A DNA stretch of 53,849 nt from a virus (Duplodnaviria; Caudoviricetes), in the IMG/VR virus record IMGVR_UViG_3300047457_000833, positions 1 to 53,849 of that record. The stretch is one strand, 5' to 3'. A program made the translations under genes and the position numbers. Shown piece by piece: positions 30,954 through 53,259 of the stretch (its first letter is position 1; every line of letters starts with the position of its first letter). The notes below the pieces were generated by a model. That model was given only the letters and a program-made list of their open reading frames with translations. It did not search any database and had not been told where the DNA came from.

Positions 30954-32572
30954 ACTCCGCGCACGTCCTTGACGAACTGTTGGCACTTCCAGCCAAGCAG
31001 CGCGCTGCAGTGCTCGAGCAACTGAAACCAGCCGAACTGGCCGCTTTATCGACGCTTGCTGATCAACATCTACTTAATCCATTCGCGCGTTTTGAGGACG
31101 ACCCTGTCGGCTTCGTGGAGCACGGCCTAAACGAACGACTCTGGTCACGCCAACGAGAAATCCTCGAATCCGTCCGCGACAATAAACGCACCGCCGTCCC
31201 TGCGTCACACGCCAATGGCAAATCCCATCTCGCGGCTCGAGCCATCGCATGGTGGATTAGCGTCCACCCTGTAGGCACAGCGATGGCGGTCACAACCGCC
31301 ACCACGTTCCGTCAGGTGCGTGCTGTTCTCTGGTCACACGTCCGCCGCGTCCATCAAAGACACGGACTGATCGGCCACACAACCCAAATCGAGTGGCGCA
31401 TCGACAACGAACTGGTCGCCTACGGCTTCTCCCCTCGAGACACCGATGAAACCGCCGTTCAAGGAATCCACGCACCGCACCTGCTCGTCGTCGTCGACGA
31501 GGCAGGCGGCATCTCAAACGTCCTCGGCAACGCCCTCGAATCAATTATGACTGGAGGCCACACCCGTCTCCTCGCTATCGGCAACCCACCAACAGACGTC
31601 GAGGACTCATGGTTCGAGCGCGCCTGCCACAGCGATCTCTGGACAACCATCCCGATCTCCGTCTACGACACACCGAACTTCACAGGCGAGGACGCAGGAA
31701 CATGCCTCTCCTGCCCACCTGAAGTTGCGCCACACGACATCAAAACACACCTCGTCGACGAATCATGGGTCAACGACGTGCTTGCTGAATTCGGCGAAAC
31801 ATCCGCCTTTGTCGAAGCCCGTGTCCACGCACGATTCCCACGCTCAGCCCCAAACAAGGTGCTACCCCTCTCATGGATCGAAGCCGCCGCCGACAACGAC
31901 GACCCCGTCCAGTCAAACGAAATCAGGCTCGGCGTCGACATCGCCGCCGATGGAGGGGATGAATTCGTTATCGCTCGAGCAGACGGCATGATCGTCACGA
32001 TCCGCCACAAATCGTCAGGTTCCGCCAATCAGAACGCTGTCGATGTCGCAGGCGTCGTGCTGAACCATATTCGTGAAGCCGAACGAGACCGCCTCGAGCG
32101 ACGCATCAACCAGCCAGTGCGCGTCAAAATCGATACCATCGGCGTCGGATGGGGTGTCGTGAGCATCCTGCAACGCTGGAAAGACGAGCAGATGCACGAC
32201 AGTCTGGTGATCCCCGTCAACGTGGCCGAACGAGCCGCCGAAGCCGCCAAGTTCGCAAACCAGCGCGCAGAAATGTGGTGGAACATGCGCACGCTTGTGC
32301 AAGCCCACCAGACACAGTCAGGTGTCCCTCAGATCGACCTGAAACTCGATCTTGACCGTCGCACCATTGCCCAGTTGTCTGCACCGCAATACAAATCAGA
32401 CTCGTCGGGTCGCATCAAAATCGAGTCAAAGGTCGACATGAAGCGGCGTGGAACATCATCGCCTGACCGTGCTGAAGCCGTCTTGCTGGCCCTCTACGAG
32501 CCACCAAACTCAGGAATCAACCCTGTGGTCGCACCAATCGTGCTCGACCAGTCGAACCCGTTTAGTTTCTAG
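30950..32572 (+). CDS. terL: Terminase large subunit
   Basis: SHANGKS Walker A, VVVDEAG Walker B, IGNP, GVDIA, IDTIGVG, SPDRAEA. Confidence 0.92.
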   Translation: MNSAHVLDELLALPAKQRAAVLEQLKPAELAALSTLADQHLLNPFARFEDDPVGFVEHGLNERLWSRQREILESVRDNKRTAVPASHANGKSHLAARAIAWWISVHPVGTAMAVTTATTFRQVRAVLWSHVRRVHQRHGLIGHTTQIEWRIDNELVAYGFSPRDTDETAVQGIHAPHLLVVVDEAGGISNVLGNALESIMTGGHTRLLAIGNPPTDVEDSWFERACHSDLWTTIPISVYDTPNFTGEDAGTCLSCPPEVAPHDIKTHLVDESWVNDVLAEFGETSAFVEARVHARFPRSAPNKVLPLSWIEAAADNDDPVQSNEIRLGVDIAADGGDEFVIARADGMIVTIRHKSSGSANQNAVDVAGVVLNHIREAERDRLERRINQPVRVKIDTIGVGWGVVSILQRWKDEQMHDSLVIPVNVAERAAEAAKFANQRAEMWWNMRTLVQAHQTQSGVPQIDLKLDLDRRTIAQLSAPQYKSDSSGRIKIESKVDMKRRGTSSPDRAEAVLLALYEPPNSGINPVVAPIVLDQSNPFSF

Positions 32573-33549
32573 AACTTCTCTTTGCCGATACCGAACTCGT
32601 CGGTGAACGCGTTCGCCACCTGCAACGCTTCCGAGATCGTCATGTCGACACGCACGACTTTGACGTTAAGGTCGCCCAGACCGTCCTTCGAGTCTGCGCC
32701 GACTGCGGCAGCCCAACGGTGATGGCCGTCAATCACATAATTGTCTTTTGACACGTAGATCGTGCCTGAGTCCCACTTCTTGGAGTCCATGATGCCTGCG
32801 ACCTTGTCGCTCTTCAGTTCGGCCTGCGACGCTTTGAGGCTGGCAGCAGGAACCTTTTCTTCGGTTACTTTCACGCCTTCGCCTTTGAGGAACTTGAGGA
32901 ACGCTGGCCCTGCGTCAACCTGACCCTTGTCGTCGGCGATCTTCGCCGCTTCGCTGCCTTCGCGTGCTGTTCCCGACAACTGTGGCATCTCAGCGCGAGG
33001 AAGTGGCTTGCCGTCCGCGTCGGCGAGTGACTGACCGCAGAACACGTTCGTGCCTTTCACTGACACGTTGCAAAGGTTGATGCGCACCTTCTCGCCGCGC
33101 TCCTTCGCTTCATTGACCATTTTGTGTAGTTCTTTGAGAAGCGTGTTCACTTGCTTCTCGTCCTCGAGTTCAACGACCTCACCCTTCGCCATCCGTTTGA
33201 TCGCCTCTTCGACCGTCTTGACGCGGATCGGCTCAGGCCGCTTCACAAGCATCGCCTTTGCTGATCGTTTGCCCGACTTCAAATCACGCACGATGCCCGA
33301 CGCCTGCGACTCGGTTCCAACACCTGAGGCGTCAACCCACTGATTCCCTCTAAATGGATGACCTTCGTAGTCGCCCTTGCGCAAGGCCTGCGCCTTCAAC
33401 ATCGCGGAAGCAAGCGCGCGGCGTGCTGAAACTGACGAACCCTCGACACCTTTGCGCTCGATCTCTTTGCGAACGATTCCCCATGTCGGGTCGTCAAGCG
33501 TCGAGTACGGTCGCAGCGAATCAACAATTCTTAGTTCGTGTTCAAACAC
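32569..33549 (-). CDS. GHPFRGNQW-tagged protein with C-terminal ParB/Srx-like domain
   Basis: KGDYEGHPFRGNQWVDASG near aa 58; LKASQAE...IYVSKDNYVIDGHHRWAA. Confidence 0.8.
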   Translation of the reverse strand: MFEHELRIVDSLRPYSTLDDPTWGIVRKEIERKGVEGSSVSARRALASAMLKAQALRKGDYEGHPFRGNQWVDASGVGTESQASGIVRDLKSGKRSAKAMLVKRPEPIRVKTVEEAIKRMAKGEVVELEDEKQVNTLLKELHKMVNEAKERGEKVRINLCNVSVKGTNVFCGQSLADADGKPLPRAEMPQLSGTAREGSEAAKIADDKGQVDAGPAFLKFLKGEGVKVTEEKVPAASLKASQAELKSDKVAGIMDSKKWDSGTIYVSKDNYVIDGHHRWAAAVGADSKDGLGDLNVKVVRVDMTISEALQVANAFTDEFGIGKEKF

Positions 33550-36256: not shown

Positions 36257-36515
36257 CGACCTGCAACCACTCGACATCGTCAAAGTTGTGTGGGAGGACG
36301 CCCACAACCTAGAGGATGGATGGAAAACCCTTGCTGATCTCACCGAAGAAGCGATCTCGTGCCGCATCGAGACCGTTGGCTTCTGGTTGATGCAAACGAA
36401 CGCGTTCGCGGTTCTCTGCTCCGATGTCGACCGTTCAAGTGAGCCAGTACACTTCCACACGGTGCTCACCATCCCGTTGCACTGCATCATCGAAATTGAG
36501 CGACTAAATGGCTAA
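36234..36515 (+). CDS. Hypothetical phage protein
   Basis: VKVVWEDAH...GW...TVGF...IPLHCI; GGAG RBS. Confidence 0.6.
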   Translation: MGIHATVNDLQPLDIVKVVWEDAHNLEDGWKTLADLTEEAISCRIETVGFWLMQTNAFAVLCSDVDRSSEPVHFHTVLTIPLHCIIEIERLNG

Positions 36516-37926
36516 AACAGACGGCTACGACTTTCAGGAGATCGGCTCCTCAGGACTCAAACGAGTCGCTGGTTTCATTGACGACGAAATCGTAAATTCG
36601 TTACGCGGCCTACAAGGCGCGAAAACCTATCGTGAGATGGCCGACAACGATCCCGTCATCGGCGCGATGCTTTACGCCATCGAGCGACTCATCATCCAAA
36701 TTGACTGGCGTGTCGAGCCATTCAGGGACGAAAACGACGAGACGACGAAGAAAGACGAAGAGATCGCCCAATTCGTTGAATCATGCCTGTACGACATGTC
36801 GGACTCATGGGAATCCACCCTCTCAAACCTCCTCACATTCCTCACCTACGGGTACGCATACTGCGAAATCGTCTACAAACGCCGCCTCGGACGCGACCAA
36901 GACGACCCGACGAAACGCTCCCAATTCGACGACGGACGGATCGGCTGGCGCAAGATCGCGCTCCGCGCCCAAGAAACCACATGGGAGTGGATGCTCGACG
37001 AAAAAGGCGGCATTCAAGGCCTCAAGCAGTTAGACCCATCAGTCGGGCCACTCGTAGAAATCCCCATTGAGAAGGCTCTGCTGTTCCGCGCCTCCACCGC
37101 CCGAAACAACCCCGAAGGACGCAGCATCCTCCGCAACGCATACCGCGCATGGCGATTCAAAAAGACCATCGAGGAAATCGAAGCCATCGGCATGGAACGC
37201 GACCTCGCAGGTATGCCCGTCGCCTATGTCCCTCCGTCAATGTTGTCGTCTGCCGCCACAAACGCCGAAGTTTCGGCCCGTTCCGCTATCGAGAACCTTG
37301 TGCGCGGCATCAAACGAAACGAGAACGAAGGAATCCTGTTCCCTCTCGCCTACGATTCCGAGGGCCGTCAAACCTACAAACTGGAACTGCTGAACGCTGG
37401 CGGCAACCGCCAATTCGACACCGACAAAATCATCACGCGCTACGACCAGCGCATCGCAATGACCGTGCTCGCCGACTTCATCCTGCTCGGCCACGCCAAC
37501 GTCGGATCGTTCGCGCTCGGCGCATCCAAAATCGATCTGTTCACGACCGCTATCGGCCAGATCGCACAGTCAATTGCTGAAACCTTCAACCAACACGCGC
37601 TCCCACGCCTCCTCAAACTGAACGGCATGGACACATCTCGAGCACCCGAACTGACGTTCGGCGAAATCACTCACGTCGACCTTGCACTGCTCGCCGACTT
37701 CATCCAGAAGGCGTCCGCAAGTGGCGCACTCATCATCGATCAGGGCATGGACGAGTACCTGCGCCTCATCTCGGGTCTCCCAGAGCGCGATCAAGAGTCT
37801 GCTGAAGGCGTGCCCCAAATGCCGAACAACGCCGCTTCTCAGCCACCTGCACCTCAACCTGCCGCCAAGCCAGAACCCAAACCTGAAGCCGATGCGCAGA
37901 CCGAAACACCGCCACAGCCGCAGTAA
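36508..37926 (+). CDS. Portal protein (Mu gp29/DUF935-like)
   Basis: EIGSSGL, YREMADNDP, NPEGRSILRNAYRAW, ERDLAGMP, GSFALG. Confidence 0.88.
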   Translation: MAKTDGYDFQEIGSSGLKRVAGFIDDEIVNSLRGLQGAKTYREMADNDPVIGAMLYAIERLIIQIDWRVEPFRDENDETTKKDEEIAQFVESCLYDMSDSWESTLSNLLTFLTYGYAYCEIVYKRRLGRDQDDPTKRSQFDDGRIGWRKIALRAQETTWEWMLDEKGGIQGLKQLDPSVGPLVEIPIEKALLFRASTARNNPEGRSILRNAYRAWRFKKTIEEIEAIGMERDLAGMPVAYVPPSMLSSAATNAEVSARSAIENLVRGIKRNENEGILFPLAYDSEGRQTYKLELLNAGGNRQFDTDKIITRYDQRIAMTVLADFILLGHANVGSFALGASKIDLFTTAIGQIAQSIAETFNQHALPRLLKLNGMDTSRAPELTFGEITHVDLALLADFIQKASASGALIIDQGMDEYLRLISGLPERDQESAEGVPQMPNNAASQPPAPQPAAKPEPKPEADAQTETPPQPQ

Positions 37927-38890: not shown

Positions 38891-39070
38891 ATGGCCGACA
38901 CTCTGATCGCTACGCGCGACAACGACAAACTTTACTGCGAAGGCACAGCGACCCGTCAAGACGGCGTAACCGTGTGGTACGGCTACATCATCGATGAGAA
39001 CGGCGGCAAAATCCCTGTGCCGAACATCGAGGTGCTACTCGGACACGGCTATTGGGACGAAATAGTCTGA
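38891..39070 (+). CDS. 59-aa hypothetical protein (absent from the ORF track)
   Basis: MADTLIATRDNDKLYCEGTATRQDGVTVWYGYIIDENGGKIPVPNIEVLLGHGYWDEIV fills the MuF-polyprotein gap. Confidence 0.6.
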   Translation: MADTLIATRDNDKLYCEGTATRQDGVTVWYGYIIDENGGKIPVPNIEVLLGHGYWDEIV

Positions 39071-39084
39071 ACTAGACTCCTCGC

Positions 39085-42000
39085 GTGCCGTACCGCGTAG
39101 AACGCCGAGGGTCTTGCCCACCAGACCGCCCATTTGCAGTTGTTCTCGAGTCGTCAGGGGAGACGGTCGCCTGCCACGCGACACGCGCTGGTGCGGAGCG
39201 TCAAATCGCCGCCATCTACGCCTCTGAGCACGATTTGGAGAAGGAGCAGCCCACGTCGTCGGGTGTGCATGTTGACACGATCATGGGTGAGGAAGAAAAG
39301 CGTCGTCGCCTGCTGAAATTCGCGCCAGTGGCCGTGATCAAAGGAGACTATGTCGGTCATCCATTCAGAGGCAACCAATGGACGGACGCGTCTGGAGTCT
39401 CAAGGCAGCCAGCCGAATCTATGCGCGATATGAGTCGCGCAGGTCAATCATTGAACCCGACCGACGATCCTCTCGTTGCTGAAACAGAAGGCCGCCCGTT
39501 TGAGGGCTTCCTTGATTTGTCTCCAGAAACTCAAGCGATGCTTGATGCTCGCGATGCGTACTTCATTCGAGTGCGCGAAGTTCGTGACGAAGCGAAACGC
39601 ATCGTTGGTGAAAAAGAAGCAAAGGCATTCACAACCCCTGACGCACTGTTTGACGAGGCACAACGCATCGATCCGTCGTTCGCAGAGACACGGAAAGACG
39701 CGGTGTACACAGGCCCAAACGTCTACAAGATCGTTGACAAAATCAAAACCGATATGTTGCTCGCGTACGGAGCGAAACCGCTTCCTGAGGGCGAAACCGC
39801 GCCGACTCTCTATTATGCTGCTTTCACACGCGAAGAGTCGGGTCGCCTTACGTCCGAACAACGCACCATCGATCCTAAAGTAGACGTCACCCCGTTGCGC
39901 GAACGCGGTATGTCGGATCAACAAATAGGCGAACTGGTGCATGCCGTTGAAGTGAAAGCAAACCGTTTGCTTGACGGCCCCGAAGTCCGTTCCGCACAGT
40001 TCGGGCAGTCAGTTCCCGATCAGATCGCCGCAGAACGCAAATTGATCCCCGTGCTCGAGGAAGAACTCAAGAACGCTCGAGTGAGCGTCACAGTCACTCC
40101 ACGAATCCTGTCAAACATCCTCGCCGATGAACGGTTCAAGACGCAGTTTGAGACAGGGAAGTCAAGAGGATATAACTCAACGCAGGCCCGTCAAGACGAA
40201 GAACTAGCACGGTTCGGCTACCCCACACAGATGCCAGCCGACAAACGACCTGTTTACGGGATGATCGAGGTTGGTGGCCTGCGCACCCCGAGCGAACGCG
40301 GAAACCTCCAATATGGCAATGTGCTGGTGGTGCTGAAACCAGAAGTTGCCGACCGCACCACGTTCTCCGCAGATGATTCTCTCAGCAATTACCGTCCAAG
40401 CGCACCGCTTCGTGAACCGAATACGCGCGGCATTTTGTCGGCCTTCGTGGAGAACACTCACACGGCAGACGAGATTCGGTCAGGCGAAATGTATCTTGAG
40501 GCTCAAGTGCACGGTGGAGTCAAGTTGTCCGATATTGGGATGGTCATCTTCGAGTCTGGCGTCCAAATCGAGAACCGTAGCGGAGACAAAGTCAAGACGG
40601 CGACCGCGCCGAGCGCAGCCCTGCTGAAACGACTCGAGAAGGCTGGCATTCCGTACCAGATCGTGACGTCAGGCGCAGACATTAAGCCTGTCGAAAAAGC
40701 AGTCGGCTTTGACCCGACGCTACTCATCAAAGGCGATTATGTCGGCCACCCGTTTCGCGGCAACCAGTGGACAGACGCGTCAGGAGTGTCTCGTCGGCAA
40801 GCCATGTCGGGTGCTGATCGCTCGAGTGGTATCGCCAACTTGCAGGCTGTAGACACCGTTGAGGAGGCGCGTGCCACAGGCCGCCCACTCAAGATTCTGC
40901 AACCCGAGCACTATCCACCACAGGTCAAAGCAGCGTTAGCGGCCCATCGACAGGCCCAAGACGCGATCAACGCGCTACACGAAGAGATTGTAGGACAACC
41001 CGAAACCGAAGAAGCCACTAAACGCTTTTATGCTGATCGACGCGTACAAGTCGCGGAACTTGCACTTCAGTTAGCACTAGATGAAGCCAGAGTGCAACTC
41101 ACTACCGAACTTGCAAAGAAATATGGATTCACAGTTGAACAAAACCCAGAAGCACCCTATGAACGCATTCCATACGAGAACGTTTGGCGTGATCCCGATG
41201 GCCGTCTCAAGCGCGAAGAAGCATATTTTTACCCATCGAAGTTTGCGGAAGGATATCGCTGGACTGCCGCACCGTTAACACTGCTTAACCCAGATGGCTC
41301 TTACCGTCTTGTTTATCAGGGCGAAAACAAAGAACAAAAGTTGGGCTACGAATCGTTCTACGGGATTCCTATCGAGTCCTTGCGCACAGGGAAACCACCT
41401 TTTAGTTCATACGACGCTTCGGGCAATCCTGATCAACCACAACAAGACCAGAAGGCTGTTGATGCAGCGCGACAAATATTAATTAAAGAGGCCAAAGACC
41501 TCGGTATCGATTTGCCTGAAACCACTCAACCGCCACGCCTATCCGCCAAAAACCTTAAAGGAAGCCTGTCTGACGACGACATAGGTGTGCTTGGAAGCCA
41601 CATTTTCCAAACGGGTATGCGAGCGTTTCTTGGGGAAACTAAAGAAATCGATACGACGTTGTCTTGGACTGACCCAAAGGGCGACGTCACGGCGACCCTC
41701 ATTGCGAGGCAGGGCCGATTAGTGACAGACGACGCTCCGCTTTCGGTGACTGTTCCAGCGAACAAGGTTGGAGCGATTCTCAAGGATGGCCGCCTAAAAA
41801 GCCAGTTTGAGACAGGCAGATCGGGTGGCAAGAACGATCCCGAGATTCGTGCCGATTGGGAGGCCGCCATGTTCGGCTATCCGCGTGGCATGAATCCCGA
41901 GCAGAGGCCGATTTACGGGATGGTTGAAACAGGTGGCCCAAAGCCGTCCTCGACGCGAGGCAATGAGCAGTATGGCACGGTCACGCTTGTGCTGAAAGAT

Positions 42001-44754
42001 GACGTGAAGGATCGAGCGACCTTCACGAACGGCGACTCTCTTAACATGAACAGACAGTTTGTTCCAGTGCGTGACCCGTCAAGCCGTCTGGCCCAAGAAA
42101 GAGTGTCGGGTCGTATGGAGGTCGGAGATGACAACGACACCTACTACGAAACCCAGATTCACGGTGGAGTCAAAACATCCGACATCGCTAAAGTCATCAT
42201 CGACACACGAACCTACAAAGACTTCAAATGGATTAGCGTTCCTCCGTCTGCTGCGCTGCTGAAATCACTAGACAAGGCTGGCATCCCCTACGAGATCGTG
42301 GCAGGCAAGAACTTCCAAGACCCCGAAGCGCATAAAAGCGCGACACCCATCCTCGCCAAAGGCGACTATGAAGGCCACCCTTTCCGAGGTAACCAGTGGG
42401 TCGACGCGTCAGGCGCACGACCAGCATTCGCAATCCCCGACAACGGCGTTGATTTCAACCCGTACAGTGCTGAAGCCAAAGACTATTCGGAGATGGATCG
42501 CCGCAACGAACGCATCGAGTTCTCTGCGAACGCGTCCGTCGCCTTCGACGACGCGCGTCAAGCCGACCTGCTTCGTCTCAACGATCTGCGCGGAGTGGGC
42601 ATTATCGAGGTTCCTGCACCAGCCGACAAAACGAATCCGCGTCGCTACAGGCTTGTGGTGCGTCTCGGCGGCTACGACACAACCCTTGTTCTTGATTCCT
42701 TGAAGGAGCATCGCAACTTTGATGAGGCTTTGAAACGCAAGCCGAAGGTGCAGGAACTGCTCGAGGAATTCGTCAACAACCCAACACTCAAAGTTCGTGC
42801 CATCGACGCCGACGTGTGGGAGTACGAGTATGTCGCACAGTCAGGGCCGAACAAGGGTCGCACCATCACGAAGCGCACATCGTTCGTGAAACCGCAGTAT
42901 TCGCAGCAGCCCGATGTGGTTCTGAAGTCACTCAGCGTGACCAAAGGCGACTATGTGGGCCACCCGTTCAGGGGTAACCAGTGGATGGACGCCAACGGCG
43001 TGCCGCGTGGTGAAAGCAGGTCAGGAGAGTCAATCAAGATCGAGCGTCCCGAGATAGGCGACCTTGTGCTTGCTGCCGAACATGATGTCGGTCACACGGA
43101 CACGGTGGCCATGTTCCTCACCGACGACATCAGGCGACGCGACAACGCCCTAACCGAGTCACGCAATCAGGCTTTAGGTCTTGAGGGATTTCAGGGCGAA
43201 GGAACCTACGGCGCGTCGTTCTTTAAGCATCAGGTTGCTTTGGGTGTTGCTGAAACCCTGTCGTCAGTCCCGTTTGACGAATCCAAAACCGCCTTCACTG
43301 ACCTTATGGCGTTACAAGGCTATGAGGATGAGGCGCGCATCTTTACTGACGGTTTGCGCGGCTTGGTGAAAATTGATGATTCCGTGATTGTTAAGCCAGC
43401 CGAATACGAAGGCATGGTTTCAATCACGATCAACGGCGAGGAATCCCTTCACACCATTTCAGACCTCATCACAGACGGTGGAGCGATTCTTTCTCTGCCT
43501 AACCCAAATTCAAAGATTCGCGGCATCATTGGCTTTGACGAAAAAGCATTCAAGAATGTGCTGGAGGCGGAAGGTCTCAGCGTTTTATGGAACCTCGACT
43601 ACATCCCAGAATCCCCGAGAGAGCCTGATCCGCGACTCAAAGATAAACGAGAAGCGTGGCTACGCGCCTTCAAGGCGGGCCTCACAAGCCCAAACGCTGG
43701 CCAAGACATCGTTGTCGACGTGAGCGAATCGTTCCCAAGAATTGATGGTGGTCTAGAGATTCGGCGAGTGGAGGACGGTTTTAGGGAATTGTCACGCATC
43801 CCTCGGAATCGTGGCGAAAATATCAAGAGTCTTTATCTTGATCTAGGGAATCAAGCGTCTCGAGACCTTCAGACCCTCATCCCTAACGGCTTGGTCTTTG
43901 ACAAAGAAACGGTCGTCGGTTATGGGCTGGCGACGCAACTTGTCGGGAACTGGGCCAAAACTGCCAACGACTCGCACGTTGTAGCGCACCTAATTCAGGA
44001 CGTGGCCCGTCAAGAATTCGGTCTTGAACAAGCCACTGACTGGTCTACTAAAACGATGACCCTCACTGGTGAACCGCAAATTCAGGAACAAAGCCGCGCA
44101 CTGCTCAAACAGAACGGGCCGCTTGTCAAAACGATAGGGCTTGCACTGCGCTCGATGCATGACGCCACTCAACGCCATTTTGAGGCACAAGGAATCCAAT
44201 ACGTGCTGCTTTATCGTGGTGAAGGCGACACACCTGATTCCACAGAAAGCGATTCACTCACGACGCAAGTTAACCAATTGGGTAACATCGGGAAAGGCGT
44301 TACTTCTATCGCTACCACTCGCCCACTGTCGTCGTGGGCAGCGACCGTGTCGACTGCTGAACAGTTCTCCTATGGGTCGCGGAGCGCGATAGCGCGAGCC
44401 ATAGTACCCATCCAAGACATTCTGTCCATCCCATCTACAGGCTTCGGTTGCTTCGACGAGGATGAATTCGTGGTTCTCGGGCGGCCTCGCATGGTGGACG
44501 TGAACCTTGCCAGCACGATGGGTAGCCGTGCGTCTCTTGCAGTTGGTGGAGCACGACGCGTTCTTGACTTGGCAGAGAGCGTAGAGATGGCGTACCCGAG
44601 GGGATCTAATCGCGGTCGGGAGATGCGAGCATATTTTGAGATTCAACCAGTGAACACGGGCTACAAGGATGAAGCAGAGCGAGCGACGCAAGAAGCCCTT
44701 GACTCAGTCATCCGTCAACTTGAAGCCGATCCGAACACGATGATTCCAGCGTGA
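39085..44754 (+). CDS. 1889-aa multi-effector polyprotein: four GHPFRGNQW tags, two DUF3626-like domains, C-terminal ADP-ribosyltransferase
   Basis: Tags at 39340, 40729, 42358 and 42943; duplicated QFETG...RPxYG...QYG...HGGV domain; LYRG/LSSW/EDEFVV. Confidence 0.85.
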   Translation: MPYRVERRGSCPPDRPFAVVLESSGETVACHATRAGAERQIAAIYASEHDLEKEQPTSSGVHVDTIMGEEEKRRRLLKFAPVAVIKGDYVGHPFRGNQWTDASGVSRQPAESMRDMSRAGQSLNPTDDPLVAETEGRPFEGFLDLSPETQAMLDARDAYFIRVREVRDEAKRIVGEKEAKAFTTPDALFDEAQRIDPSFAETRKDAVYTGPNVYKIVDKIKTDMLLAYGAKPLPEGETAPTLYYAAFTREESGRLTSEQRTIDPKVDVTPLRERGMSDQQIGELVHAVEVKANRLLDGPEVRSAQFGQSVPDQIAAERKLIPVLEEELKNARVSVTVTPRILSNILADERFKTQFETGKSRGYNSTQARQDEELARFGYPTQMPADKRPVYGMIEVGGLRTPSERGNLQYGNVLVVLKPEVADRTTFSADDSLSNYRPSAPLREPNTRGILSAFVENTHTADEIRSGEMYLEAQVHGGVKLSDIGMVIFESGVQIENRSGDKVKTATAPSAALLKRLEKAGIPYQIVTSGADIKPVEKAVGFDPTLLIKGDYVGHPFRGNQWTDASGVSRRQAMSGADRSSGIANLQAVDTVEEARATGRPLKILQPEHYPPQVKAALAAHRQAQDAINALHEEIVGQPETEEATKRFYADRRVQVAELALQLALDEARVQLTTELAKKYGFTVEQNPEAPYERIPYENVWRDPDGRLKREEAYFYPSKFAEGYRWTAAPLTLLNPDGSYRLVYQGENKEQKLGYESFYGIPIESLRTGKPPFSSYDASGNPDQPQQDQKAVDAARQILIKEAKDLGIDLPETTQPPRLSAKNLKGSLSDDDIGVLGSHIFQTGMRAFLGETKEIDTTLSWTDPKGDVTATLIARQGRLVTDDAPLSVTVPANKVGAILKDGRLKSQFETGRSGGKNDPEIRADWEAAMFGYPRGMNPEQRPIYGMVETGGPKPSSTRGNEQYGTVTLVLKDDVKDRATFTNGDSLNMNRQFVPVRDPSSRLAQERVSGRMEVGDDNDTYYETQIHGGVKTSDIAKVIIDTRTYKDFKWISVPPSAALLKSLDKAGIPYEIVAGKNFQDPEAHKSATPILAKGDYEGHPFRGNQWVDASGARPAFAIPDNGVDFNPYSAEAKDYSEMDRRNERIEFSANASVAFDDARQADLLRLNDLRGVGIIEVPAPADKTNPRRYRLVVRLGGYDTTLVLDSLKEHRNFDEALKRKPKVQELLEEFVNNPTLKVRAIDADVWEYEYVAQSGPNKGRTITKRTSFVKPQYSQQPDVVLKSLSVTKGDYVGHPFRGNQWMDANGVPRGESRSGESIKIERPEIGDLVLAAEHDVGHTDTVAMFLTDDIRRRDNALTESRNQALGLEGFQGEGTYGASFFKHQVALGVAETLSSVPFDESKTAFTDLMALQGYEDEARIFTDGLRGLVKIDDSVIVKPAEYEGMVSITINGEESLHTISDLITDGGAILSLPNPNSKIRGIIGFDEKAFKNVLEAEGLSVLWNLDYIPESPREPDPRLKDKREAWLRAFKAGLTSPNAGQDIVVDVSESFPRIDGGLEIRRVEDGFRELSRIPRNRGENIKSLYLDLGNQASRDLQTLIPNGLVFDKETVVGYGLATQLVGNWAKTANDSHVVAHLIQDVARQEFGLEQATDWSTKTMTLTGEPQIQEQSRALLKQNGPLVKTIGLALRSMHDATQRHFEAQGIQYVLLYRGEGDTPDSTESDSLTTQVNQLGNIGKGVTSIATTRPLSSWAATVSTAEQFSYGSRSAIARAIVPIQDILSIPSTGFGCFDEDEFVVLGRPRMVDVNLASTMGSRASLAVGGARRVLDLAESVEMAYPRGSNRGREMRAYFEIQPVNTGYKDEAERATQEALDSVIRQLEADPNTMIPA

Positions 44755-44779: not shown

Positions 44780-45736
44780 GTGCTGAACCTTGATCCGACA
44801 CCGTTGGCAGCCGACTGGATGCGTGTCGTCGCGTTCAACGCAGAGTTCGGGCCAATCAACACGCTGGATGAATTTATCGACAAGATGGGGATCAGTCGCT
44901 CGTCGGCATTGCGTCCACAGTTAGCGCAGTACGCGTCGATGGCGTGGCTTCATTTGCTGCCGTACCCTGTGCAGCAGGCGATCAAGGAGGCGGCGAGAGT
45001 CTCGAAGGCTGTGCCGATGTTTGGGCCGTCCGTGCTGATCAAAGGCGATTATGTTGGCCACCCATTTAGAGGCAACCAATGGACAGATTCATCGGGTGTA
45101 AGCCGTAGCGGTCAGGGGTCTGGTGCGCGCCCGAGCGACAAAACGCTGCGCACCATCGCGTTTGAGATGGACTCAAAGATGGAAGTTCTAAAAGATGAAG
45201 GCGCGCGTCTCGTCAAGTTCGCTGGCGGCATCGAATTCGTAGACAGGCAGGCCTACATCGACCAACTTCCGCTTGTGTCGCGTGCAACACCGAATCATCA
45301 GGTGATCGCCAGTGGCGTGACAATGACAGAGGAAGCCCTGAATGACGAAGCCGATGTCGCTGTCATAGAGGATCGTGACGGACAGGTTTGTGGCGCAATT
45401 TCAATGAGCAGCAAGCCGTACACTTCTCAGGAGTTGTCGGAGTTTCTTGGTGGGGTCGACCCGAACTCAACTTGGATCGAGATGCGTAGCGCAGGCTCGA
45501 CAATGAAAGTTGATGGTGTCGGCTCGGGCTTGTTCGCGGCAGCGATTTCTAAGGCTGCCGAATCGGGGTCTGGCCTGTATTTGTCGCCGCTTGACGAGAG
45601 TGCCAGACAGTTCTGGGCTTCTAAAGGTTTCAGGGAGGCGGAACGCGTCGGTGGTAGCGAAGGCACCTACCAGTATCTGGACGCCGAATCGGTGCGAATC
45701 ATCGCCAACAACCTCGAGGAAGGGTGGGGCGCGTGA
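44780..45736 (+). CDS. Tagged protein with GNAT acetyltransferase-like domain
   Basis: Tag at 45041; DGVGSGLF...LYLSPLDESARQFWASKGF. Confidence 0.75.
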   Translation: MLNLDPTPLAADWMRVVAFNAEFGPINTLDEFIDKMGISRSSALRPQLAQYASMAWLHLLPYPVQQAIKEAARVSKAVPMFGPSVLIKGDYVGHPFRGNQWTDSSGVSRSGQGSGARPSDKTLRTIAFEMDSKMEVLKDEGARLVKFAGGIEFVDRQAYIDQLPLVSRATPNHQVIASGVTMTEEALNDEADVAVIEDRDGQVCGAISMSSKPYTSQELSEFLGGVDPNSTWIEMRSAGSTMKVDGVGSGLFAAAISKAAESGSGLYLSPLDESARQFWASKGFREAERVGGSEGTYQYLDAESVRIIANNLEEGWGA

Positions 45737-47865
45737 TTCCAGCCTTCGATCTATTTGATGTCGCTTTAACGGACGAGGATGTGCTGAAAGGCGACTACGT
45801 AGGTCATCCGTTTAGGGGAAACCAGTGGATGGACGCGAACGGTGTCGCTCGAGGCGACGCAGGGTCATCTCCCGATCAAGACAAGCAGGCCTACGACCTG
45901 CGTCAACAGGGCAAATCTTGGGAAGAGATCGCCAAGATTCTCGGCTACGCGAACGGTGGCTCGGTGCGTCGTCTGGCGATGCGTCACGAGAAACGACTGA
46001 AGGACGGCGGTCAGGAAGTGGTGAAACCTGAACCCAAACCTGAGCCGAAGGTTAAGCCGCCGAAGGGTCGTGAACCTGAAAATTATGACGAGGCTGTTGC
46101 GCTGGCTAAATCGCTAATCAAGGCCACGTTCAACGGTGACGCCATCGCCACGCTCACTAAATTGATGGCGGATTCAGGGAAAACCTTTGATCCGAACGAT
46201 GAGGCATACAAACTGACTGATGCCGAACGCGTAATGGAGGAGAAGGTTCTAATGGTCGGGGACGCTGTGCGGATGGCGTTGGCGTTCGCTCAAGCCCAAG
46301 CAAGTGGCCTCGACCCGAAGGAAGCGGCGCGTGTCCGAGAGGAGCATGACGCGCTTAAGAATGCGTGGCAGAAACTAGTAGACGCCCGTGCGGAAGCAGA
46401 AAAAACCGCGCTGGCGGATGCCAGAAAAGCATTGACTGGATCAAAACAAGGTGCATCTTGGAATCCAACTTTCACAGTTAGCAGTTTCGCGGATCAGATA
46501 GCCGCTGCGAGAGCACTAGCCGAGCGTGACGGTCTGCTGAAACCAGACGAATCAATCCAATACATCGGTGGGAGCGTGGCGTTAGGTTTTGCTGGAGCAA
46601 AAGCATCAACAGAACTGCAAACCCTTGTGGATCAGTTAAAAGCCGACGAACCCACTGCCGATGTTAGAACTCGCGGCAAAGATCTATTCGTGCCAGTAGA
46701 CCCTCGCAGCACTACCGCGAGCCTTGTGCGCGCCGTGTACGACGCCAACAAAGACGCATTGCAGTTGATTGAGGCACTCTCGAGCGAAGTCACCGCAGGC
46801 AGAAAAACCGTTGCCGAGGTGAAACAAATCTTGTCCTCGCCCACAGCCATTGTTGACCAGATGAACCGCACCTATGTGCTTCCAGAAAACAAAGGGGAAC
46901 GAACCGACAACGATTACCGTGACACCCATGCAGGTTGGAGTGGTCGTCAAGTGTCGCTGCTGAAACCAGAAACACGACAAGAAATGCTCGTCGCCGCAGT
47001 CCAGAAAGCGGCCCAAAGTTCCAACATTGTCGACTCCATCGGTGCGGTAATGAGCCGACCGATTGGTGATCTCGTCGGCGTCAACATAGGAAAACTTGAC
47101 CCGACGATGACCTATCGGCAGGTTCAGGAACGTCAAATTGAAATCAACACTAAAATTAGAGAACAAAACGAAAAGCAAGAAGCAAGCGGAATCTCTCGCG
47201 GAACTGTCGTTAGACGCGTCCTTGAAGATGTCGGTGTCAAAATGGCCTCTCCTGACCTGTTGCGTGTCAACTTTGATCCGAAGCGCAAGGATGCTGCGGA
47301 ATTGACTGCGGCGGCACGCGAAATCTCGATGATGCTCCCTCGAGCGTTCGTGCTTGGTTCTGATTCGCTCAAACCTCAGTTCTCTGGCGGTGGCCACATG
47401 ACGGCGGAACTCAAGTTCGGTGGCGGTCGCGCCCACGCCCAGAATCTGATGGGTGGCAAATTCATCATCAAACATGAAACCATTCCTACAAACTCGGCCA
47501 GAGGCCTTACTTCGTGGAAGTCGGTGTTTCTTCACGAGACGGTGCACGGAATGGAGTACGCAAATCCCCTAATCCGCTACCTCGAATACTTGACTTGGAC
47601 TCGGCGTGGCGAAGGCGAGCCTTTGCGAACACTAAAATCGATCACAGGCGCGTCGGGGTATCAGTCTTACGAAAAGGGCAAGAAGGATGCGTGGGGAAAC
47701 GCTTACGCTGGCAAAGAATACGGTAAAAGCGGAACGTCAACGTATGAGATCATGACCACAGGAATGCAAAGCCTCTATTTTGGGGATGAGCGCGCCGACC
47801 GCGAGCATTTGAATGCGGTGCTCGGAATTTTGGCGGCGGCAAGCACACTGGCAGGCAACAAATGA
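45733..47865 (+). CDS. Tagged protein with HTH and C-terminal zincin metallopeptidase
   Basis: Tag at 45787; SWEEIAKILGYANGGSVRR; FLHETVHGME...YAGKEY...YEIMTTGMQ. Confidence 0.75.
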   Translation: MIPAFDLFDVALTDEDVLKGDYVGHPFRGNQWMDANGVARGDAGSSPDQDKQAYDLRQQGKSWEEIAKILGYANGGSVRRLAMRHEKRLKDGGQEVVKPEPKPEPKVKPPKGREPENYDEAVALAKSLIKATFNGDAIATLTKLMADSGKTFDPNDEAYKLTDAERVMEEKVLMVGDAVRMALAFAQAQASGLDPKEAARVREEHDALKNAWQKLVDARAEAEKTALADARKALTGSKQGASWNPTFTVSSFADQIAAARALAERDGLLKPDESIQYIGGSVALGFAGAKASTELQTLVDQLKADEPTADVRTRGKDLFVPVDPRSTTASLVRAVYDANKDALQLIEALSSEVTAGRKTVAEVKQILSSPTAIVDQMNRTYVLPENKGERTDNDYRDTHAGWSGRQVSLLKPETRQEMLVAAVQKAAQSSNIVDSIGAVMSRPIGDLVGVNIGKLDPTMTYRQVQERQIEINTKIREQNEKQEASGISRGTVVRRVLEDVGVKMASPDLLRVNFDPKRKDAAELTAAAREISMMLPRAFVLGSDSLKPQFSGGGHMTAELKFGGGRAHAQNLMGGKFIIKHETIPTNSARGLTSWKSVFLHETVHGMEYANPLIRYLEYLTWTRRGEGEPLRTLKSITGASGYQSYEKGKKDAWGNAYAGKEYGKSGTSTYEIMTTGMQSLYFGDERADREHLNAVLGILAAASTLAGNK

Positions 47866-48191: not shown

Positions 48192-49718
48192 GTGACCATG
48201 ATTTCTGTCGGAGACATCCTCGAGCGTCCACGCAAATCAGGCGGTGTTGAGCGCGCTCTGGTTGAGAAGGTGCGCACGTCAGGCAACGTGCTGATCAACG
48301 GCTCGCAGGTAGCCGCAACCTCCGAGAACCCTGTGGTCACAGCCAGAATCGTGGTACTGGACGGCGAGTCGGTGCTCAAGACTCGAGCCACACGCACTTT
48401 CGTGCACAAAATGCACGGCGACGACCATGAGATGGGCGTTTATACGCTTGTTCCGCGCCAGAAGGCGATGTACGAGATGTATGAGGCCATCGTCGGGCAG
48501 ATGGGCCAGTTTGATAAAAGTGTTGGTGGGAATGGTGCTCACTACGCGGACGGCACGGAGAACGTGTTCCTGTCGGAGGGGATGCAGTGCGCTAACTGCG
48601 TGTTTTACTGCGGTGGCCGAGCCTGCGAAGTTGTTGCTGGAGACATCGACCCGTTGGGCATCTGCAAACTGTGGATCATCGCTGAGCCTCTTCTCGGCCA
48701 GCAGGCTACGCCTGTGCTGATCTCTGAGCGCGAACTAGGGATTGAGAAGGCATCAAACTTCACTCCACCGCAAGCGGTGCGTGACGCCGCGCAACGGGCC
48801 GTCAAATGGATCGAGGAAGGGAAGGCTGGCGACGGCTTCACGGCGGTCGGTGCAGGCCGTGCGCGCGATCTCGCAGCAGGACGGGCAGTGTCGCTCGAGA
48901 CCGTCAAGCGGATCTCCAACTTCCTGTCGCGCCACGAAGTTGACAAGAAGGCCGAAGGCTTCAGTCAAGGGGAGAACGGCTACCCCTCGGCAGGTCGTGT
49001 CGCTTGGGATGCATGGGGAGGTGATCCTGCGAAGAGTTGGGTGAGTGGAATCCTTGCCGATGTCCAAAAGGCCGCCAAACTGAAGGAAGGCCAGTTCGTT
49101 CGCTGGAACTCGTCAGGTGGCCCTGCGCAAGGCCGCATCGAGCACGTGATGGAAGAAGGCACGCTCGGCGTCCCGAACTCAAGGTTCAAGATTAACGCGC
49201 AGCCCGACGACCCTGCGGTGCTGATCCGCATCTATCAAGAGGGTGCGGACGGATGGGTGGAAACCCCAACCCTTGTCGGTCACAAGGCGTCGACGCTTCG
49301 TCGTATCGAGCCTCTGTCAAAAGCGACACGCCTCATCAAGCAGGCCACCGAGGAACGCTTCACTCTAGCCCCTTGGTATATTCCAGAAAAATATGATGCG
49401 CAGAACGAGTGGACGGACGCGCGCGAACTTCAGAAAGCGTTGTGGGAATACGTTCAGTCTGGTGATCGCACCATCCGTTTGCAGCACAACAAGAATGTGC
49501 GCGCTGGCGAATGGGTGGAAGCAATGACGTTGCCGCACTCGTGGACGACCCCGATGACGAAAGCCAACGGCGCAACCACCGAGATCACATACCCTGCTGG
49601 AACCGTGCTTCTGGGCGTCATCTGGGACGACTGGGCGTGGGACATGGTCAAGAAAGGCGAGATCACGGGCTTCTCCATCGGTGGCTCAGCGGAACGCCTC
49701 GACCTCGAAATGCCCTAA
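48192..49718 (+). CDS. Multidomain prohead protease (C-terminal XkdF/S78-like) with HiPIP-like and DUF2945-like domains
   Basis: ERFTLAPWYIP...DAQNEW...ELQKA...LQH...VKKGEITGFSIGG; CANCVFY...C...C-LW; VRWNSSGG. Confidence 0.8.
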   Translation: MTMISVGDILERPRKSGGVERALVEKVRTSGNVLINGSQVAATSENPVVTARIVVLDGESVLKTRATRTFVHKMHGDDHEMGVYTLVPRQKAMYEMYEAIVGQMGQFDKSVGGNGAHYADGTENVFLSEGMQCANCVFYCGGRACEVVAGDIDPLGICKLWIIAEPLLGQQATPVLISERELGIEKASNFTPPQAVRDAAQRAVKWIEEGKAGDGFTAVGAGRARDLAAGRAVSLETVKRISNFLSRHEVDKKAEGFSQGENGYPSAGRVAWDAWGGDPAKSWVSGILADVQKAAKLKEGQFVRWNSSGGPAQGRIEHVMEEGTLGVPNSRFKINAQPDDPAVLIRIYQEGADGWVETPTLVGHKASTLRRIEPLSKATRLIKQATEERFTLAPWYIPEKYDAQNEWTDARELQKALWEYVQSGDRTIRLQHNKNVRAGEWVEAMTLPHSWTTPMTKANGATTEITYPAGTVLLGVIWDDWAWDMVKKGEITGFSIGGSAERLDLEMP

Positions 49719-50422: not shown

Positions 50423-50844
50423 ACAGAACCCAACGGCGATCAAGGAAACATGCGGTGAAAGAATTTGCGGCACTCGACAACGCGCTCCAGTCCGCAGATA
50501 ACGCTGCCCGTATCTTGCTCAAAGACCCCACCAGCCCTGCTGAAAGCCGTTACACGGCGGCTTGGGCCGAGATTCCGATGTGTGACCGCAACAAGCCACT
50601 CTTGCGCATCTGTGACCGCTACAGGATCGGGATGCAGGGGATCGGGATGCGTGAAACAGGCTCGGTTCAGGCGCGCGTGTTCAAACCTCGAGCCGATTCA
50701 CGGCTGTCACGCGAACTGTGGCGTCAAGCGTCAACGGAGCGTCGCATGGCTGCCGAGGTTGACTGGGCCACAGAGTTCGTTGCGTGCCTCCGCAGGTGGG
50801 AGTTCGTCGCGTCTGCTCACTGCCGTGTCGGCGATAACGGTTGA
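50419..50844 (+). CDS. Hypothetical basic protein
   Basis: GGAG RBS, GTGA coupling, MNRTQRR start. Confidence 0.45.
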   Translation: MNRTQRRSRKHAVKEFAALDNALQSADNAARILLKDPTSPAESRYTAAWAEIPMCDRNKPLLRICDRYRIGMQGIGMRETGSVQARVFKPRADSRLSRELWRQASTERRMAAEVDWATEFVACLRRWEFVASAHCRVGDNG

Positions 50845-50857
50845 CGGGTGGGCTACT

Positions 50858-52024
50858 ATGGCGACTGAGATGAACCAAGACGCGATCTACAAGATGTTTG
50901 CGGCGTCCCCTGTCGGGAAGTCGATGTCGGCTGCTGATCTTGACGCGATGCGTCAAATGCTCGAGACGACCCCTGTCACACAGATCGGTGGCTGGTACGG
51001 GGAGCAGATTCGCAAGGCTGCCCGTCTCGCCAAAGGCGATTACGTTGGGCATCCGTTCCGAGGCAACCAATACACCGACGCATCAGGCGTGGGACGAGGC
51101 TCCTCAAGTGGGCCTTCCAGCCGTCGCAGCACCGCCGAGATTGACGCCATCAACGAGCGTCTGGCACGCACAGGCGACAAGCAGTTGATGATGGACGGGC
51201 TTCTCAGCAGTGCTCGAGCAGACGTTGACGCAGCGATGCGTGCAGGGAAAAACAACGTACCGTTGATTGACGGTCTTGCGCTGCTGGAAACCGCGAACCG
51301 TGCAGGCGTTAACACTCCAGAAGGCAAGCAGGCACTTCAACGCGCCTTCGACTGGCTCGAGAACGAGAACTATCACGGGCTTGCTGAAGGCGTCCATAAC
51401 ATCATGCAGGCCAGAGGCCCGAAGAACGGCTACATGGAATTTGAGCGGGATGCAAAAGACTTCGTGTCGTCGCAGATCGCGGAGACCGCACTCTTCGCGG
51501 AAACCGACCTGAAACGACAGATGGACGGCATCGACGGAATCATCGAGACATCAAAAGGCGCAATCGACAACGCCGACGTCAAAGCCGAAAGAAGCGAGAA
51601 TTTTGAGAGCGAGGACGCCGCGAAAGATCGCAAGGACGCATCCGATGTGACTCGCGCTGAGACGCGACTCCAACGGCACGCGAAGGAAGTCAAATCAGTC
51701 TTGGAATCCCTGATCGTATACAGTCGGAATGGGCGCACCGATTCAAACGCTGGTGATATCGAGCGCGCCTACAAGAACCTGTTCAGTAAGGCCTCTCAAC
51801 TTCAGATGCTTCGCTCTGAGATCATGCGCGATAGCGAATTTGAGCGCACCGCAAGCCGTCAAGGTTTTGCTGGCGGCAAGAGCGTCACTGGCAAGTACGG
51901 TTTGCTTCTCGGCAGCATTCGGCAGGCATTAGAGGCGATCAACGAAGTCCAGTCTGAGGTTGATAGTTCCAGCGAATCGATCCGTCAATCCGCCGAACAA
52001 ATGTACGCAGACTCGAAGGGATAA
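50858..52024 (+). CDS. Tagged helical/coiled-coil protein
   Basis: ATG 50858 after the 50844 stop; KGDYVGHPFRGNQYTDASG at 51032. Confidence 0.75.
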   Translation: MATEMNQDAIYKMFAASPVGKSMSAADLDAMRQMLETTPVTQIGGWYGEQIRKAARLAKGDYVGHPFRGNQYTDASGVGRGSSSGPSSRRSTAEIDAINERLARTGDKQLMMDGLLSSARADVDAAMRAGKNNVPLIDGLALLETANRAGVNTPEGKQALQRAFDWLENENYHGLAEGVHNIMQARGPKNGYMEFERDAKDFVSSQIAETALFAETDLKRQMDGIDGIIETSKGAIDNADVKAERSENFESEDAAKDRKDASDVTRAETRLQRHAKEVKSVLESLIVYSRNGRTDSNAGDIERAYKNLFSKASQLQMLRSEIMRDSEFERTASRQGFAGGKSVTGKYGLLLGSIRQALEAINEVQSEVDSSSESIRQSAEQMYADSKG

Positions 52025-52028
52025 TAAA

Positions 52029-53174
52029 GTGGCCGAAGTTCGCAAGTGTTCATGTGGTGAAGGTAACCAGCAGGTGCTCGACACGCTGCGCTCCACCACG
52101 CTGGCCGAGATGCCTGTGGACGAATTCAACGAGATCGTCGACGACGTCAACAAGGCTGGCGGCATCCGCAACCTGTCAGGTTTGTCTCGGGTGCTGATCG
52201 AGAAGGCGTTGAACGATTTGCGTGCAGGTGTAGAGAAGGGCGACTACGAAGGTCATCCATTCCGAGGAAATCAGTGGACTGATTCGTCAGGTACTGGACG
52301 TGGCGGCGCAGGCGGTGGGCCAAAAGGTTCTAAGAATCAACGGGCTAGATATTTTGACAGTGCACCTGACCGCCCACAGACCGCTGGTGCTAGATATTTT
52401 GACAGTGCGCCCGACCGCCCACAGGCCGCTGGTGCTAAATATATCGACATGAAAGGGAATTCTCCTCGTCGCGCTGAGAGTGTGCAACAGGAACTGAATC
52501 GCCTGTCTAGAGAAGGCCTACAAAGTCAAATCGATGAACTGAAGATGTATATCGATGACCATAAGGGAATGGCTGAAGTTCTACGCGACCTCGGCAACGA
52601 GGATGGCGCACGACAAGCAGAAGCCAACGCTGCGAAAGCAGAGAAAGAGGTGCGCGGCCTAAAAGCGGAGATCGACAGGCGTCAAAAGCGATTCGAAATG
52701 GATCAAAAAACGGAGTCCGCTAAGACAAAAGTCACCGAGGACAACATTGATTCCAAATTGAAAGGCGATGACCTAAAGCAGTTCAAAGCGCAGGTCAAGG
52801 AAGCCGAGACTGCTGTCAAAGAATTCCGTAAAACTGTCGCAGATATACAAAAGCGCGTGGCCGCCGAAGGAGTTCGTGGCGTTGCTTCTATTCTTAAAGA
52901 AGCACTCAATGAGGCTCGGACGTTTGAGAAGTTGGTGCGCGACGCCAAAGCAGCACCAACCATTCGTCAAGCGGTACGAATGACGTCGTTAGGAACAAAT
53001 GCTGGCGAAAACGCTAAGGGTGCGCTTCGAGAGGTTTTGGGGAAACTAAAGGGCGGCGAAAGCGATGCTGATACAGAAGCAATAAATGCTCTGCAAACTG
53101 CTGGCGACAAATATTTTGGTCTTTCGCCAGACCGATACAACCTTGATGATGCCTTTGATTTCATTGATAGTTGA
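52029..53174 (+). CDS. Tagged coiled-coil protein
   Basis: GTG 52029; KGDYEGHPFRGNQWTDSSG at 52236; K/E/A-rich helices. Confidence 0.75.
   Translation: MAEVRKCSCGEGNQQVLDTLRSTTLAEMPVDEFNEIVDDVNKAGGIRNLSGLSRVLIEKALNDLRAGVEKGDYEGHPFRGNQWTDSSGTGRGGAGGGPKGSKNQRARYFDSAPDRPQTAGARYFDSAPDRPQAAGAKYIDMKGNSPRRAESVQQELNRLSREGLQSQIDELKMYIDDHKGMAEVLRDLGNEDGARQAEANAAKAEKEVRGLKAEIDRRQKRFEMDQKTESAKTKVTEDNIDSKLKGDDLKQFKAQVKEAETAVKEFRKTVADIQKRVAAEGVRGVASILKEALNEARTFEKLVRDAKAAPTIRQAVRMTSLGTNAGENAKGALREVLGKLKGGESDADTEAINALQTAGDKYFGLSPDRYNLDDAFDFIDS
52344..52442 (+). repeat. 45-bp in-frame tandem repeat (about 2.2 copies)
   Basis: Units start at 52344, 52389 and 52434, encoding ARYFDSAPDRPQ[T/A]AG. Confidence 0.9.
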
Positions 53175-53259
53175 GGCTTGCCAAGTCCTGAATCACGCGC
53201 TGGACAGTTCAACCGACGTTTAGTTGTCGGTCTTGTCTGGTCATCTACACTCAAGACAA

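Follow-up and report, generated by a model that had tools for sequence, protein, structure and literature searches.

Several short signals that carry proteins into capsids have features in common with the locus described here. The prohead protease gp4 of phage HK97 reportedly bears a C-terminal encapsidation tail, said to have been described by Duda, Oh & Hendrix in 2013; it is a short tail on an assemblin-like protease and brings both the protease and foreign cargo into a procapsid of the HK97 fold. The herpesvirus protease/scaffold similarly combines an assemblin fold with a shell-protein-binding tail at the C-terminus and, just upstream, a release cleavage, the M-site, and the cargo-loading peptides of encapsulins are short, conserved and terminal, modular and transferable among varied cargo, and serve a shell of the HK97 fold. 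The capsid and scaffold proteins of Staphylococcus aureus phage 80alpha share with ribosomal protein L27 an N-terminal motif cut by Prp, a case in which an N-terminal motif of the major capsid protein (MCP) is common to other proteins through one recognising protease. T4 IPIII, with its capsid-targeting sequence (CTS), and P1 DarB, with a signal at its N-terminal end, provide examples of encapsidation signals that are later cleaved; each is a short peptide close to the N-terminus of a protein that is packaged and ejected, and suffices for head targeting, and that of T4 is removed by the prohead protease after loading (PMC9024508). The element considered here is a 13-residue peptide, QPTSSGVHVDTIM, in the leader of a large cargo protein encoded by an entire IMG/VR virus record of 53,849 bp (IMGVR_UViG_3300047457_000833, Caudoviricetes; this whole stretch of DNA is referred to below as the window). 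The peptide resembles the N-terminal tip of the MCP encoded in the same window and can be recognised from sequence as a copy of a mobile module ~35 residues long. The kind of element to which the module probably belongs, the capsid-targeting signal, is a known one, and what is new is the self-likeness to the tip of the MCP N-arm.

The differences from the described systems are as informative as the similarities. No likeness of the HK97 gp4 tail to the MCP N-terminus has been reported to our knowledge; moreover HK97 has a delta-domain and no separate scaffold, and in the window the module is found on cargo and not on the protease. The herpesvirus tail has another sequence, belongs to a eukaryotic virus, forms an amphipathic helix and is no MCP look-alike. 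Encapsulin peptides have another consensus and bind a pocket in the shell interior, and we know of no self-mimicry among them. In 80alpha the shared motif is removed from the MCP, whereas here most MCPs begin at the motif and keep it. The T4 CTS is the N-terminal extremity of its protein, has the scaffolding core as its target and is not described as resembling the MCP (PMC9024508), whereas the module follows a 50-residue domain and occurs at C-termini too. Phage polyvalent proteins, the class of cargo concerned, are thought to be packaged and to be processed by assemblin-like peptidases (Iyer et al. 2017, PMC5512222); a word search of the available part of that paper gives zero occurrences of both 'linker' and 'DUF3626'.

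The cargo protein of the window is 1889 residues long (39085-44754, + strand), lies downstream of the portal and MuF genes, and contains four copies of a tag of the GHPFRGNQW type as well as DUF3626, which is present twice. Its great length, its several domains, its head-gene neighbourhood (portal, MuF) and its effector-type domains identify it as a polyvalent protein, and its homologues carry ADP-ribosyltransferase (ART), topoisomerase, acetyltransferase and MuF domains. The peptide occupies residues 55-67 (39247-39285, + strand) and is identical at 8 of 13 ungapped positions to QPTQNQVHVDAIL, residues 3-15 of the MCP (758-796, + strand). Both peptides are located where the initial annotation had placed them, and its count of 8 identities in 12 positions is correct, the thirteenth position being the last one added here; its description of the peptide as standing right after a Lys is only loosely correct, since Lys53 lies two residues before Gln55 (LEK-E-QPT; the upstream context L51-E54, at 39235-39246 on the + strand, has Lys53 at -2). 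The first KGDYVGHPFRGNQW tag begins at K86, 19 residues past the peptide. Taken alone the match is weak by BLASTP of polyprotein against MCP (E=0.12). When the polyprotein was shuffled, 8 or more of 13 identities to this MCP 13-mer were obtained in 1 of 5000 shuffles, and 8 or more of 13 somewhere along the whole MCP in 13 of 200.

Lack of conservation in polyprotein homologues had been named beforehand as the outcome that would count against the peptide; instead the peptide is found in the same position in these homologues, with an invariant core. Relatives of the leader were reached by means of a degenerate DNA pattern and, at the protein level, a word-index search; comparison of the leader with cultured phages by tblastn had given no match, and an exact-word back-translation of the leader no relatives in IMG/VR. 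In the resulting alignment of 10 leaders (window, L097, L099, P0006-P0009, P0020, P0022 and P0030), residues K53, Q55, P56, S58, V61, H62, V63, T65 and M67 are invariant in all 10, and the peptide is conserved as strongly as the GHPFRGNQW tag that follows it. The position of the peptide is also constant (L097, L099/L101, P0006-P0009, P0020, P0022): it stands between a small N-terminal domain of ~50 residues (residues 1-50 in the window, 39085-39234, + strand, with a GTG start) and the first tag (KGDYVGHPFRGNQWTDASGV, K86-V105, 39340-39399, + strand), which is itself invariant in the alignment, and is separated from the tag by a basic run and spacer (GEEEKRRRLLKFAPVAVI, G68-I85, 39286-39339, + strand). 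This leader of N-domain, peptide, basic run and tag remains constant while the cargo behind it changes, from an ADP-ribosyltransferase domain in P0008 and P0009 to the DUF3626 protein of 1.8 kaa in the window.

The public gene call for the polyprotein (P0005, 1823 aa) starts at Met67 and leaves out the peptide together with the conserved N-domain in front of it. The longer reading frame, and thus translation of the peptide, is supported by the conservation of residues 1-66 at the protein level in relatives, by domains 40-46% identical to the small N-domain that open the equivalent genes of G004 and G005, and by a GTG-CCG-TAC start common to the window, L097 and L099; recognition of the module therefore corrects the gene model. 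The GTG at 39085 lies 14 nt past the stop of a 59-codon open reading frame (ORF; 38891-39070) and has no obvious Shine-Dalgarno sequence. The 50-residue N-domain (MPYRVER..C..D.PFAVV...G..VACH....A..QI.AIYASE) opens the post-MuF gene in several relatives, L088 and L089 among them, whatever the tag or cargo.

Beyond the polyprotein leaders the module recurs widely. Its consensus begins with hydrophobic-E-K-x, continues as [QD]-P-[TS]-x-[SN]-x-V-H-V-D-[TS]-[IV]-M and closes with a run rich in Lys and Arg. A scan of IMG/VR with the back-translated pattern QPxxxxVH[VT]Dx[IV]M returned 27 stretches, comprising 15 non-MCP modules, 8 MCP N-termini (of the 'QPSASDVHVDAIM' type) and 4 chance matches; relaxing the first residue of the pattern exposed many more, and a second, Lys-anchored scan gave at least 119. 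The collected IMG/VR loci contain 85 distinct modules, 55 of which form the extreme C-terminal tail of XkdF proteases of ~240 aa (...GGKAERLFVDIDLE-KN-DPTVSDVHVDTIM-SPSKKKPKKEETV-stop). In another 8 cases the module shares an ORF with the protease domain and lies downstream of it, in larger polyproteins, and 2 are other C-terminal tails; the remaining 20 are internal or otherwise placed (in leaders, past a TUDOR-like domain and, in L195, just before the protease domain), one of these being really an MCP with an N-terminal extension. The module thus has in common with encapsidation signals its location on head-entering proteins, in a terminal or leader position, and its portability between cargoes. 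Flanking residues were counted in 35 modules collected without requiring a Lys: position -4 is hydrophobic in 34, position -3 is Glu in 19 and position -2 is Lys in 30. In the same set P, V, H and M are invariant, and every module is followed by a basic run of 5-10 K/R within the next 20 residues (median 7).

The MCP of the window (752-1702, + strand) has the HK97 fold, as indicated by a weak match to PF03864 (Phage_cap_E; 23.5 bits vs a cut-off of 22.9), by a match to 3BJQ (E=4.6e-22) and by Foldseek. By sequence 3BJQ is the only structure matched, with no solved capsid of a close relative. A monomer model based on 150 diverse representatives has a mean predicted local distance difference test score (pLDDT) of 88.4 (a 22-sequence alignment gave an unusable pLDDT of 38), and its Foldseek matches include 3BJQ, HK97, lambda, T7 and encapsulin shells. 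Residues 1-20 of the model, which include the tip, are disordered (pLDDT ~45-54), as would be expected of an N-arm that needs a partner. One search found more than 6000 relatives of this MCP, and they belong to a very abundant group of uncultured phages. Across 150 representatives at 50% identity, 103 of which could be anchored on the downstream LTN motif, the family-wide N-terminus is M-[PAS]-Q-P-T-x-S-D-V-H-V-[DN]-x-P-L-T-N-I-S-V-A-Y; among the anchored sequences the P is present in 95, the H in 95 and the V in 82. The motif begins at most 4 residues from the start in 113 of the 150. In unextended MCPs the Met is followed by P, A, S or T, and with such a small residue Met removal is possible, so that the mature end would be x-QPT. 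Another 16 of the 150 (P0186, P0189, P0194, P0222, P0237, P0240, P0243, P0247, P0260, P0261, P0266, P0271, P0279, P0281, P0292 and P0323) carry N-terminal extensions of 7-37 residues that end in phi-x-K-[ASNTD] right before QPT, as in the modules, which suggests a short propeptide that may be cut after Lys.

The relation of module to MCP tip was evaluated with a hidden Markov model (HMM) built from 49 distinct modules and zero MCPs and run on the six-frame ORFs of six genomes. True modules were recovered in the window, where the polyprotein peptide is the top match (31.1 bits), and in G003; in 6 of 6 genomes the best non-module match is the MCP N-terminus, at 11.3-17.8 bits, compared with 8.1 bits for the best unrelated match. 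The likeness of the module to its cognate MCP tip thus goes beyond chance: given the conservation of the leader, the number of distinct modules and the retrieval of the MCP N-terminus by a profile that contains no MCP, the resemblance is not accidental. In 76 loci both features are present, yielding 29 distinct pairs of MCP and module, which without exception agree at P2, V7, H8 and D10, and in 28 cases at I12; in L011 the string QPTSTQVHVD is shared exactly by MCP tip and module. The two copies differ at synonymous codon sites; therefore selection acts on the peptide, and the likeness is maintained at the protein level. A recent gene conversion or DNA exchange between the MCP 5' end and the module was considered and is rejected on account of the same synonymous differences.

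Covariation of cargo and MCP copies, which the initial annotation proposed to look for, is seen only as a single difference between clades. Position 4 is of the same class, polar or hydrophobic, in both peptides of 28 of 29 pairs, polar in the clade of the window and hydrophobic in the sister clade apart from one pair with Ile against Ala. Over all 29 pairs the observed score is reached by 0 of 5000 permutations, and when permutation is confined within clades by 825 of 5000 and 2914 of 5000; no signal is thus present inside either clade.

The interpretation preferred here, with a probability of about one half, is that the module imitates the tip of the MCP N-arm and so loads proteins into the procapsid via the partner of that tip, after which a cut at Lys frees the cargo. 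An encapsidation or anchoring signal is the best reading because the peptide is portable and conserved, is found on head-entering proteins, mostly as a protease tail, and is always accompanied by a basic run; the proposal of the initial annotation that the peptide anchors cargo in the head thus gains support from context, in that 55 of 85 modules are XkdF protease tails, the place where the HK97 protease reportedly bears its own targeting signal. The likeness to the MCP tip suggests that the module uses the same partner as the tip, and during assembly the module would engage whatever binds the N-arm tip. Docking at the capsid site of the MCP N-arm, as put forward in the initial annotation, is one possibility, and the partner could equally be the scaffold or the protease. 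N-arms contact scaffolds in other phages, and the basic run fits an acidic stretch of the scaffold; for these reasons the acidic scaffolding protein is considered the likeliest partner, the basic run presumably adding an electrostatic grip, with a neighbouring MCP subunit or the protease groove as the other candidates. A complex prediction that combined the scaffold with residues 18-316 of the MCP and 54-90 of the polyprotein, run without controls, gave a score of 0.00 and a mark of 0.32 and bears on binding in neither direction. Most relatives have the module as the C-terminal tail of an XkdF-type protease, and in this phage it has been placed in the leader of polyvalent cargo, between the small N-domain and the first GHPFRGNQW tag. 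The protease might then cut at the Lys two residues upstream and thereby free the cargo after loading, in the manner of the T4 CTS or the herpesvirus M-site; Lys53 may be such a release site, or it may stand in for the charge of a free N-terminus.

Several observations weigh against this interpretation. The module is optional, being present in 2 of 6 near-complete genomes (the window and G003). Among the 39 loci of the window's clade with 3 kb or more of sequence upstream of the MCP, at least 4 have it; this count is a minimum, since in the window itself the copy is ~15 kb upstream of the MCP. The corresponding figure for the sister clade, where the module is a protease tail, is 8 of 9. In the leaders of P0015, G004 and G005 the tag comes immediately after the N-domain, with no peptide between them, and the window's own protease has no look-alike tail. 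Nor was a cultured carrier found: the C-termini of the proteases of phages Ottawa, ValentiniPuff and Laroye lack the tail, and when a tailed protease was compared with cultured phages by tblastn the alignments, among 30 of the 38 matches, end at or before query residue 212, the module lying at 226-238. In these relatives the MCPs of Ottawa and ValentiniPuff have the tip motif, and that of Arthrobacter phage Laroye has its inner half only, starting ...PEHIDALLTN without the QPxxxxV half; construction of this capsid therefore does not require the tip. The copy is also inexact: at position 11 the MCP always has A where the module has T or S, and at position 13 the MCP always has L where the module has M. 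If cuts occurred at both K53 and K85 the peptide would be left on a 32-residue fragment and could therefore anchor the cargo only before processing. Finally, the phi-x-K-x ending of the extensions of the 16 MCPs fits a plain cleavage site equally well.

A more specific form of the preferred interpretation, which is put forward only tentatively, is self-mimicry: the module would be a decoy of the N-arm tip, borne by the protease and the ejected cargo, that during assembly plugs into the tip's receptor (scaffold or neighbouring subunit), so that the cargo poses as the arm of a pseudo-subunit until a Lys-specific cut releases it.

The chief competing explanation, judged unlikely, is that the peptide is nothing other than a cleavage site shared by substrates of the XkdF-type protease, phi-x-K | x-QPT...VHVD, such that the likeness reflects the specificity of one protease and not docking. 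Extended MCPs would then be trimmed at this site, and polyproteins and protease tails would carry it in order to be cut. This explanation comports with the prevalence of Lys at -2 (30 of 35 modules) and of a hydrophobic residue at -4 (34 of 35), with the 16 of 150 MCPs whose extensions end in phi-x-K-[ASNTD] while unextended MCPs could reach the same x-QPT end by removal of Met, with the Lys that precedes the GHPFRGNQW tags and the tags of relatives too, and with the precedent of 80alpha. However, the 113 of 150 MCPs that start within 4 residues of the motif have nothing to remove and yet keep it, and thus the motif must have another role in the MCP; conservation extends 13 residues beyond the presumed cut, with V7, H8, D10 and M13 invariant, which exceeds the usual subsites of a protease; and neither the constant basic run nor the commonest position of the module, at the extreme C-terminus of the protease, is explained.

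It is improbable that the module is instead a ligand of the protease, a tail that would occupy the substrate groove like a pseudo-substrate and silence the enzyme until MCP tips in the procapsid displace it, and that on cargo it would recruit the protease. The commonest context of the module, the tail of the protease itself (55 of 85), is what would be expected in that case, as is the L195 module immediately before the protease domain, and the Lys context fits here in the same way as for a cleavage site; but the protease of the window is untailed and the module is missing altogether from 4 of 6 near-complete genomes, so that regulation of this kind cannot be general. Still more improbable is a role after assembly, unrelated to the N-arm partner, in which the basic run would bind packaged DNA and the peptide would serve as a handle for portal exit or for positioning of cargo. 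Although a K/R-rich run does follow every module, and polyvalent cargo is presumably of the ejected kind, such a role would explain neither the likeness to the MCP tip nor the presence of the module on the protease, for which no ejection is expected. A chance likeness, or a decaying and functionless remnant of a duplicated MCP 5' end, for which the BLASTP E-value of 0.12 and the 13 of 200 shuffles with 8 of 13 somewhere might be adduced, is refuted by the 85 distinct conserved modules, the invariant leader core, the synonymous changes and the profile test in 6 of 6 genomes, and has next to no probability.

How tailed phages select the proteins that are packed into the head and co-ejected with the DNA is known for a few model phages only, and here a module of ~35 residues marks both the polyvalent cargo and the proteases of a phage group that is uncultured and very abundant. 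If loading by imitation of the N-arm is correct, it would provide a simple structural rule for the selection of cargo, packaged effectors would be predictable from sequence, and the module would be a candidate tag for loading foreign proteins into HK97-fold particles; if self-mimicry in particular is correct, a very large family of HK97-fold capsids would have in the module an encapsidation tag that is portable and defined by its sequence. Full-text literature searches for the peptide and tag strings, with supplements outside their scope, returned nothing relevant, which leaves unpublished status unproven.

The initial annotation had regarded the peptide as a second and independent anchoring signal, and such independence is plausible. 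The tag that follows the peptide, KGDY[VE]GHPFRGNQ[WY], occurs in 9 copies in the window, each beginning with Lys. Its GNQ[WY] codons are located at 39370, 40759, 42388, 42973, 45071, 45817, 51062 and 52266 on the + strand and at 33348 on the - strand, which places four copies in the polyprotein and one each in the ORFs at 44780-45736, 45724-47865, 50465-52024 and 51960-53174 and in the minus-strand ORF at 32569-33549. At equivalent places relatives have quite different tags (HLPGQHSQKTH / HLDGQHDQSTHG, and FGGDRSxAGRYAAxxRW). The tags give the impression of a second class of signal or cleavage site on head proteins, one whose members are interchangeable.

The genome of the window is probably closed, in spite of its label as 'linear, 87% complete': positions 1-138 and 53712-53849 are an identical 138 bp, and because the ends overlap in this way and contig L004 crosses the junction at 99-99.8% identity, the record can be treated as effectively closed. 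The order of the head genes is portal (36508-37926), MuF-like protein, the 59-codon ORF and the 1889-aa ORF, followed by more tag-bearing proteins and a 508-aa protein with a C-terminal XkdF-type protease domain, then by an acidic scaffolding-like gene that extends across the junction, a small ORF and the MCP gene. The 508-aa protein (48192-49718, + strand) is an XkdF-type prohead protease fused to upstream domains, with matches to Hva1_TUDOR and to PF14550 (49.3 bits vs a cut-off of 24), and ends in ...GFSIGGSAERLDLEMP; with both LQHN and GFSIGG present it is a predicted protease of the Peptidase_S78_2 (XkdF) family. XkdF domains all stop directly past the GFSIGG serine motif. The 5' part of the scaffolding-like gene lies at 53224-53849 and its 3' remainder at 139-310 (both + strand), as established by translation and by the L004 contig across the junction, and the protein is conserved in 28 aligned homologues; its N-terminal motif E.S.VDHPAH..EGW...K is invariant in 28 of 28. 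Whether the N-terminus of the scaffold might complete or dock the protease is offered as an open thought. The small ORF between scaffold and MCP occupies the position of a cement/decoration-like gene in Ottawa and ValentiniPuff. In the window no Pfam family matches the leader N-domain, the decoration-like protein or the scaffold.

Some annotations in the cultured relatives may be viewed in the light of these assignments. Ottawa gp87 (L001 14142-15281) and Laroye gp18 (L242 1882-3003), annotated as 'RNA ligase' or 'aldolase', have a C-terminal XkdF prohead-protease domain, and Ottawa gp85, annotated as 'hypothetical protein', matches MuF. In Laroye a stop codon lies only 10 codons upstream of the start of the MCP, gp26 (L242 6282-7241), and gp17, annotated as 'head maturation protease', sits right after the portal.

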